From: a virus
IMG/VR virus record: IMGVR_UViG_3300046694_000291
Coordinates: 1 to 64,000 of that record
Direction: 5' to 3' (one strand)
DNA: 64,000 bases
Notes under the pieces: generated by a model
Told to the model about the DNA's origin: nothing
The model's database searches: none
What the model saw: the letters and a program-made list of their open reading frames with translations, nothing else
In this document: piece by piece, positions 46,986-47,301 of the stretch
Layout of the letters: every line of letters begins with the position of its first letter
How positions within the stretch are numbered: position 1 is the first letter of the stretch
Position numbers and translations under genes: made by a program

Positions 46986-47015
46986 TTGAATTGACCAGAC
47001 CGGCACTGCTAACCT
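46986..47015 (+). promoter_or_regulatory. putative housekeeping-sigma promoter
   Basis: TTGAAT-N18-TAACCT. Confidence 0.5.
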
Positions 47016-47301
47016 CGCCCCAACGAGCGGGGGCACTCGCTCGGGGCGTGACGGAAGGCTGCTATGCGGAACGGCGGCCGAACGTGCGACCGGCGGAAGA
47101 CAACCGCCCGGGTGGCTGGCCAACGGTGATCCACCCCGGCGGGACGAGGGTAGCGCCTCGGAATCTGTGCCTTCGCAGGCTAACGGTTGACCTGGATCTT
47201 CGCCTTGAACCCGAGGGCCGCGATCCAGTGGAGGTGGAATCCTCCCACCCACACAACCCCCGGCGCTGGGATCTTGCCCAGCTCACCGGGGGCTTCGTGT
47301 G
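47016..47301 (+). ncRNA. candidate structured non-coding RNA
   Basis: About nine consecutive hairpins between a promoter and a terminator-like stem; no credible ORF. Confidence 0.55.

Follow-up and report, generated by a model that had tools for sequence, protein, structure and literature searches.

What is the hairpin-dense DNA that lies just ahead of the large terminase subunit gene (terL) in the viral record IMGVR_UViG_3300046694_000291? We analysed positions 1 to 64,000 of this record, a stretch of 64,000 nucleotides (nt) referred to here as the window; the full record is a viral record of 84,106 bases with terminal repeats present and 69% G+C. The element in question sits in a 492-nt gap between the stop of the upstream gene (46922) and the terL ATG (47415). 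A preliminary description of the locus, made from the letters alone, had proposed a novel structured RNA of about 270 nt with its own promoter and terminator, and had taken its position as a hint of a role in packaging or late regulation. We find that the element almost certainly represents a real structured RNA family, on the strength of compensating base changes among relatives, and we favour with moderate confidence the view that it is a plus-strand gene of ~280 nt, running from 47018 to 47256 plus a 3′ hairpin to ~47302, whose RNA acts in trans.

A conserved RNA core and its covariation

Relatives of the element were collected by sequence words and by a covariance model. A 16-nt word from its P9 hairpin (see below) matched 16 viral loci, of which four (L044, L047, L048 and L053) contain the whole element at 84–88% identity over 230–250 nt, those of L047 and L053 being identical, and the other 12 are unrelated DNA. 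A gapped pattern and further words returned the same loci again, plus L078; in another word scan 20 of the 24 loci were unrelated, as were L057, L079 (coding sequence of a Pseudomonadales metagenome-assembled genome) and L082. The covariance model R1, which describes the 239-nt core, added L056 and L041, both matched at full length with 77 bits and E ~1e-21 at a GC content of 0.48. These two are one phage (99.6% alike), of 47% GC, with genes for a WhiB-like protein, polynucleotide kinase, thymidylate synthase and dUTPase, and the closest kinases to the L041 polynucleotide kinase are those of Gordonia phages. The window itself matches R1 with 270.3 bits (E 4e-81), by construction since the model was built partly from the window, and the independent matches are thus L056 and L041. 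The family comprises six distinct sequences, five high-GC phage versions and one from the 47%-GC actinophage, with one copy of the element per record.

The modelled fold has ten helices: hairpin P1, the long-range P2, P3 and P3a, a junction closed by P4 and holding P5, P6 and P7, and then P8 and P9. Helix coordinates below are RNAalifold pairs mapped onto the window sequence.

47018–47256, plus strand: conserved RNA core with helices P1–P9, a P4-closed junction holding P5, P6 and P7, and long-range closing helix P2 (from R1 and covariation)
47024–47031 / 47036–47043, plus strand: P1
47045–47050, plus strand: 5′ strand of P2, GGCGTG with C47047 bulged, pairing with CACCC at 47246–47250; when the low-GC member is included, both sides change in two of its five pairs
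47057–47063 / 47073–47079, plus strand: P3a
47104–47121 / 47125–47142, plus strand: P5
47145–47149 / 47156–47160, plus strand: P6
47164–47169 / 47174–47179, plus strand: P7
47192–47198 / 47222–47228, plus strand: P8
47230–47245, plus strand: P9, GGAGG-TGGAAT-CCTCC, with a stem invariant in 7/7 rows (5/5 pairs constant), abutting the 3′ strand of P2
47066–47069, plus strand: 5′ strand of the candidate pseudoknot, GCGG within the P3a loop, pairing with CCGC at 47218–47221 (all counted cells pair)
47218–47221, plus strand: 3′ strand of the candidate pseudoknot, CCGC immediately before the 3′ strand of P8, pairing with GCGG at 47066–47069

For the five high-GC sequences RNAalifold gives 81 pairs, in which 94% of cells can pair, versus 37–50% when the partners are slid by 1–3 columns. 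Both sides change in 21 of these 81 pairs, compared with 8.3 ± 2.2 in shuffled alignments (none of 500 as high) and 2–5 in slid ones. In alignment A7, whose seven rows represent six distinct phages, both sides change in 37 of 75 pairs versus 21.4 ± 2.9 shuffled and 6–9 slid, although A7 was fitted to the model and is to that extent biased toward the model structure. With the low-GC member included, covarying pairs occur in P1 (7/8), P2 (2/5), P3 (1/3), P3a (4/7), P4 (3/8), P5 (8/12), P6 (5/5), P7 (2/6) and P8 (5/7). In that phage all helices except P9 differ in sequence, with pairing kept. An inner P8 helix is unsupported (54% of cells paired). Among the unpaired columns no pairing run of four or more holds in all seven rows as aligned; one such run holds in the five high-GC rows and, by eye after a one-gap shift, in the low-GC rows as well. 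This run is the candidate pseudoknot (GCRG/CYGC), which reads GCGG/CCGC in the window, GCAG/CUGC in the other four high-GC versions and, by eye, GCAA/UUGC in the low-GC version; it is kept as a candidate only, because 4-nt complements often arise by chance.

All nine inverted repeats listed in the preliminary description are present where it had placed them. The plus strand folds at −146.9 kcal/mol with a z-score of −3.29 (none of 200 shuffles folds as well), and the minus strand gives −2.31 (one of 200 as good). Against 42 other 280-nt windows, which have a mean z of −0.44, a standard deviation of 1.24 and a minimum of −3.22, the element at −3.46 stands at the genome extreme and not far beyond it, so that from energy alone the case for more than chance folding is only suggestive; it is the covariation in relatives that settles the question. 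The RNA is read from the plus strand, since G-U pairs constant in all five rows (A5 columns 55–65, 80–180, 111–119 and 160–167) would read as A-C on the opposite strand, and the strand had been called correctly on this ground. One of the nine repeats had been misread: GGCGG-AAGACAA-CCGCC is not a conserved pairing, and its CCGCC pairs instead with a downstream GGCGG to form the base of P5. In L078 compensating changes preserve the P5 base and disrupt the proposed hairpin. Once P5 replaces this hairpin, GCGGAAGACAAC becomes an invariant unpaired stretch.

A protein-coding explanation of the conservation finds no support in these alignments, since no reading frame is conserved across the family. 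We rejected as a gene the 143-codon open reading frame (ORF) at 46991–47422, which extends over the whole insert and across the start of terL. This ORF shows neither third-position GC bias nor codon phase (GC by codon position 0.74/0.60/0.71, versus 0.66/0.50/0.94 in terL), and it has no match in Pfam or PHROG, large protein databases lying outside this search. For an inner ORF that begins with ATG at 47065, the start codon is replaced by ACG in L044. Across the family the variable columns in the three codon phases number 28 of 73, 26 of 73 and 30 of 74, and helix length differences between members are not multiples of three.

Ends and expression of the RNA

Two features flank the core, a promoter-like site on its 5′ side and a hairpin on its 3′ side.

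46986–47015, plus strand: promoter-like site, TTGAAT (46986–46991), an 18-nt spacer and TAACCT (47010–47015); by eye, in alignment A4
47257–47302, plus strand: 3′ hairpin CCCCCGG..CCGGGGG (47257–47292) with inner GCTGGG/CCCAGC, then the tail CTTCGTGTGT; differs in every member

All five high-GC members carry, by eye, TTGA(C/A) followed 17–19 nt on by a NANNNT hexamer that ends 5–6 nt before a conserved CAACG, and the window transcript is predicted to start near 47021–47023. TTGACC, perhaps the promoter box first meant in the preliminary description, is only 13 nt from TAACCT. Each member also has its own GC-rich hairpin 3′ of the core with a weak, short T-rich tail, and the hairpin of the window may be a terminator or a 3′ structural hairpin. 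In L044, L078 and L041 a tRNA gene begins 4–25 nt 3′ of the hairpin with no visible promoter between them; because there is no room for a promoter before the tRNA, the hairpin is no full stop in these three members and the RNA is probably made together with the tRNA.

At least 24 sequencing runs hold part of the stretch. The matches listed include 20 DNA runs, all of them rhizosphere, root and soil metagenomes of 2023, of which seven may represent the source sample. In each of three RNA libraries, which come from two studies, there is one contig, of 188–218 nt and 91–97% like the window; these contigs lie wholly in 47030–47262 with no loose ends listed, and a DNA-run contig continues to 47645, into terL. 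The RNA-library contigs are a weak hint of a discrete transcript, as they give no transcript ends, strand or abundance and RNA libraries can contain DNA. A shorter contig, from X12, covers only 46866–46897 and continues on both sides unlike the window. When P5 of the RNA-run variant X22/X24 was compared by hand, the changes were mixed: a G-C to C-G swap at 47115/47131 and a mismatch that is now paired at 47109/47137, two changes that give G-U, two near the base that break pairs (47107/47139 and 47105/47141), and three inserted letters that reshape the apical loop.

Together, the strong covariation, the lack of a conserved frame and of an Rfam 15 match and, as a weak hint, the RNA-library contigs inside the element bear out the proposal of a novel structured RNA. 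The preliminary description had suggested homolog collection with a covariation analysis and an Rfam search; the former gave six distinct sequences with compensating changes above shuffles, and the latter placed no family at the element, in agreement with the claim that it belongs to no known one.

Genomic setting and possible functions

The window RNA lies between a gene for a secreted Rpf/NlpC-P60/LysM wall hydrolase, which ends at 46922, and terL, and its immediate surroundings contain the following features.

46939–46975, plus strand: hairpin closing the upstream Rpf/NlpC-P60/LysM gene, outside the RNA and kept in relatives without the element; the only matching part of the 46923–47415 spacer in L002, L005 and L006
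47303–47414, plus strand: hairpin-rich spacer from the RNA end to the terL start, window-specific and common to no family member (similarity stops at ~47268)
47415–48782, plus strand: large terminase subunit gene, given as context (Terminase_6N 2e-17, Terminase_6C 1e-07)

The element is absent from all terminase-based relatives, which comprise 16 viral and 15 metagenome loci, with none in genome contigs. In particular, none of the 15 rpf-terL loci of closer relatives (TerL 74–91% identical) carries it or matches R1, and the order rpf, hairpin, terL is kept in them. In L002 only 19 nt correspond to 431 nt of the window, and in L018 only 16 nt to 427; other relatives have 84–290 unrelated nt in the slot. 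The L016 slot (about 2400–2990) contains a small ORF for a secreted Cys-rich protein that resembles the C-terminal part of window ORF 50322–51104, and the slots of L003 and L005 contain a piece with a tRNA-like T arm. In five whole records of relatives, a search for the element elsewhere returned only matches of ≤26 nt (best E 0.0046). By these sequence comparisons the slot is hypervariable and the element dispensable. Among the carriers, the window, L047/L053, L048 and L078 have it between an rpf-like gene (47–50% protein identity) and terL (55–62%), with a core that is 84–88% identical and a promoter spacer and 3′ hairpin that have diverged. Because the core is conserved far above the flanking proteins while spacer and hairpin have diverged, these loci speak against a recent transfer and for selection that acts on the RNA core. 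A core that is nearly unchanged between neighbours at ~50–60% identity, and that close relatives do without, suggests a function that is strong yet optional, for example the takeover of some host process or an escape from defence.

The other members are set differently. In L044 the element lies between divergent and convergent genes and is followed by tRNA-Pro and then by opposite-strand genes. The order in L041 runs from tmRNA through a T-arm-like piece and the element to tRNA-Gly and polynucleotide kinase. Neither locus has an adjoining terminase; the tie to terminase is therefore not general, as the elements of L044 and L041/L056 are away from any terminase. In L078 a T-arm-like piece precedes the element and tRNA-Pro follows it, ahead of terL. 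tRNA or tmRNA genes thus adjoin the element in three of the six distinct members (L044, L078 and L041), and all members are in viral contigs. The role in packaging or late regulation that had been read from the position is not supported by these comparisons, given the 0/15 closer relatives with the element, the two of six members away from terminase and the three of six beside tRNA or tmRNA genes.

The T-arm pieces contain a perfect tRNA T arm, of the form GGCGG-TTCGAGT-CCGCC or CTGGG-TTCGAGA-CCCAG, and are not called tRNA by ARAGORN or Rfam. They are found in L003, L005, L078 (~3075–3125) and L041 (~11303–11450), where they occupy the slot of the element or sit just upstream of the RNA. The L041 piece may be a tRNA-like RNA of ~150 nt with large insertions. 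The L041 tmRNA is at 11680–12003 on the minus strand (RF00023, 120.5 bits) with the tag ANSRSAFALAA.

Our favoured reading is, on balance, that of a trans-acting accessory RNA and not a terL leader. The RNA would be made as its own transcript from the promoter-like site at 46986–47015 or, where a tRNA gene directly follows, within a common precursor from which tRNA-processing enzymes would free it, and, as a stable accessory RNA acting in trans, it would then use its long unpaired and invariant stretches to bind either a protein or a second RNA. Large, intricate RNAs in which unpaired nucleotides are conserved are rare in bacteria and phages, and the few classes that are understood are ribozymes, ligand sensors and ribonucleoprotein cores. 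A link to tRNA or translation is a tentative suggestion, and we judge tRNA and translation, or a host defence targeting them, more likely than DNA packaging as the process concerned. A more specific version, which we regard as unlikely, is an oversized tRNA mimic in which P2 would be the acceptor stem stacked on P9, P3/P3a, the P4 domain and P8 would take the places of the D, anticodon and variable arms, and the P3a–P8 loop pseudoknot would form; cut by RNase P and RNase Z from a precursor made together with tRNAs, it could be a decoy or scaffold for the host tRNA machinery or for a tRNA-cleaving defence. If true, this would be a new phage route to protect or redirect translation. The repeated siting among tRNA, tmRNA and RNA-repair genes gives a concrete experimental direction, and natural relatives in which the element is either cleanly present or cleanly missing could serve directly as controls.

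Several points weigh against a trans-acting RNA with its own gene, among them the bias of A7 and the limits of the RNA-library contigs given above. The family is small, with five of its six distinct sequences at 84–88% alike, and covariation is no test of P9, P3 and most of P2, because these hardly vary. The promoter and terminator of the preliminary description stand as promoter-like hexamers in 5/5 high-GC members and as a GC-rich hairpin 3′ of each core, but not as consensus sites: a consensus scan of 46500–47900 gave no promoter-like and no terminator-like site, the hexamers TTGAAT and TAACCT are weak, and the tail 3′ of the hairpin is poor in T. A comparison of carriers with non-carriers, based on the G000 ORFs present in G007, G008 and G009 and absent from G001, G002 and G003, and leaving aside ORFs of <60 residues or with a third-position GC of <0.78, pointed to no partner protein; the three strongest carrier-linked ORFs are antisense shadows of the tape-measure gene, and the others are short unannotated ORFs and a DUF4236 mini-protein. 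The two tRNA genes of the window phage are ~35 kb from the element, so that the tRNA neighbourhood is not universal. Furthermore, in four of the six members the element is just upstream of terL on the same strand, which keeps a cis role in play.

That cis role would be a leader, either riboswitch-like or a protein-dependent attenuator, in which a structured sensor would be made from the promoter and the 3′ hairpin would gate read-through into terL and the late genes. The layout is the classic one, a promoter-like site, a folded domain, a hairpin and a same-strand gene, with terL following in the same orientation in the window, L047/L053, L048 and L078, and the complexity of the fold and its long invariant unpaired stretches would fit a ligand pocket. 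We nevertheless consider a leader improbable. A riboswitch or attenuator should have a constant same-strand gene downstream, and none is found: the 3′ neighbour is terL after 113 nt in the window, a small opposite-strand ORF in L053 and L048, tRNA-Pro in L044 and L078, where it intervenes before terL in L078 and is followed only by opposite-strand genes in L044, and tRNA-Gly and then nucleotide-metabolism genes in L041. Closer relatives express terL without the element, and no alternative pairing that competes with the 3′ hairpin was seen by eye. The terL neighbourhood in 4/6 members would also suit a packaging RNA like the pRNA of phage phi29, a structured phage RNA that binds portal or terminase and is required for packaging. 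Such a function is very unlikely for an element that is missing in closer relatives (0/15), lies away from terminase in two members and matches no Rfam model, that of pRNA included; moreover, the TerL here is of the ordinary Terminase_6N/6C type, for which no RNA requirement is known.

Two further readings concern the 3′ side of the RNA and the nature of the slot. A conserved ORF that would encode a hydrophobic peptide of ~27 residues occurs in L053/L047 and L048 and converges on the 3′ hairpin, as would be expected if the RNA were the antitoxin of a type I toxin-antitoxin pair with its 3′ end facing an opposite-strand peptide gene. However, this ORF is present in only two of the six distinct members, no hydrophobic ORF is found among the listed minus-strand frames of the window, and conservation lies in the folded core, whereas overlap with the peptide mRNA would involve the 3′ end, which makes an antitoxin most unlikely. 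That the locus makes no functional RNA, and is a decayed gene, a mobile-element remnant or a DNA-level site rich in inverted repeats, is the least probable reading of all. The slot is indeed hypervariable, with relatives holding nothing, a tRNA-like fragment or a small secreted-protein ORF, and the folding z-scores overlap the tail of the genome background; but this reading is largely refuted by the covariation, as compensating changes keep the pairing even in the 47%-GC phage, and only one strand is compatible with the G-U pairs, conservation of the core far exceeds that of the flanking genes, and the element is single copy per genome with no terminal repeats.

The peptide ORF itself encodes a very hydrophobic sequence (MRLFLIIVGAIFAAWLLIAVIIPALGR / MKLFGTILAAILAAWLIVDVLIPALQR) at ~1385–1471 of L053 (plus strand in the locus, opposite to the RNA) and ~1791–1875 of L087 (minus strand). 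It lies between the RNA 3′ hairpin and terL, converging on the RNA, and could be a small membrane toxin or holin-like peptide. The L078 terminase gene (322–2529, minus strand) has an in-frame insertion of ~275 codons in an otherwise collinear ORF of 735 residues, as do L011, L012 and L022. The insertion is intein-like, with an end in ...VSN followed by C and a second frame within it that has an HNH-like motif.

Within the window, folding of 47251–47430 gives a z-score of −2.15. The best match of the window TerL among GenBank phages is that of Streptomyces phage mu1/6 (45% identity), and the WhiB-like and Rpf genes of the window phage argue for an actinobacterial host. Further upstream, ORF 43623–44261 has as its sole PHROG match phrog_645, labelled 'Rnase E' (2e-08); the ~3 kb between it and terL contain the rpf gene and a regulator whose matches are WhiB-like and sigma-like.

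Relation to known RNAs

The best Rfam 15 matches at the locus reach 14.8–17.5 bits (E 0.7–6) against cut-offs of 50–70, and the low-GC version gives only matches of E 2.3–9 to unrelated families. The only gathering-level Rfam matches in the window are away from the element, two type II hammerhead ribozymes (RF02276; 51.2 and 43.9 bits, cut-off 37) at 4593–4655 and 4985–5046 on the minus strand, 330 nt apart. Neither the high-GC nor the low-GC version has a blastn match in 50,697 GenBank phage records. A 22-letter pattern run against the genomes of 185,579 species found only an unrelated coding match; the low-GC member would itself escape this pattern, and the scan thus excludes only close copies in cellular genomes. 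Among the papers searched, by exact sequence words and by topic, none has a record of the RNA; most of the 224 motifs of PMC5737381 were covered only through Rfam, on the premise that they are included there. We conclude that this is a small and so far uncatalogued RNA family of phages of high-GC Gram-positive bacteria (soil actinophages).

Words common to the RNA and to L080/L081, where a true group II intron (RF02001, 54 bits; L081 ~3380–4300) sits in a low-GC phage contig, are GGAAGACAAC, CTGGCCAACGGTGA and GGAATCTG, which we judge to be chance; GGAAUCUG, also common to both, is in a different helix context in each. Kinship with group II intron domain I was rejected, as these loci were matched through two short words only and R1 gives nothing there. 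A bacterial Y RNA (YrlA) acting with Ro60 was likewise rejected, with a TROVE match in none of five carrier records; the control genomes do give one. The topology resembles that of a tRNA or of the tRNA-like domain of tmRNA. Just as the T arm of a tRNA runs into the acceptor stem, the 5-bp T-loop-like hairpin P9 runs directly into the 3′ strand of the closing helix P2, with a large insertion in between, and in L078 the P9 loop is TAGAAC, which retains the U of the first and the A of the fifth loop position. In L041 a true tmRNA gene precedes the element by ~380 nt, and tRNA-Gly follows 23 nt after it. Yet ARAGORN and Rfam (RF00023) find no tRNA or tmRNA at the element, while the same tools call the neighbouring tmRNA of L041 as a positive control. 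Moreover, the P9 loop has 6 nt and not 7, there is no conserved CCA end, P2 lacks the G-U at position 3 that marks tmRNA (its pairs are G-C, G-C, G-C, U-A and G-C), and there is no tag frame, the sole candidate stop, UAA in GGCUAACGG, being CAA in L044.

Other phages offer more general precedents. The tRNA cluster of phage T4 encodes two stable RNAs of unknown function, ~140 nt long and hence shorter than the present RNA, which resemble the present family as phage RNAs among tRNA genes that are presumably freed by tRNA-processing enzymes. Of the large, ornate RNAs GOLLD and ROOL, which are often located in prophages and also marked by assembly into RNA-only multimers, GOLLD is the longer. ROOL is ~580 nt (PMC5737381), in contrast to ~240–280 nt here, and neither model matches: both are absent from all Rfam results for the window and the low-GC version. 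GOLLD and ROOL are nonetheless described in terms that fit the present family, as phage-borne RNAs with multi-branched junctions and conserved unpaired stretches that often adjoin tRNA genes (PMC5737381) and form separate genes and not leaders (PMC5737381; bioRxiv 10.1101/2024.12.08.627333).

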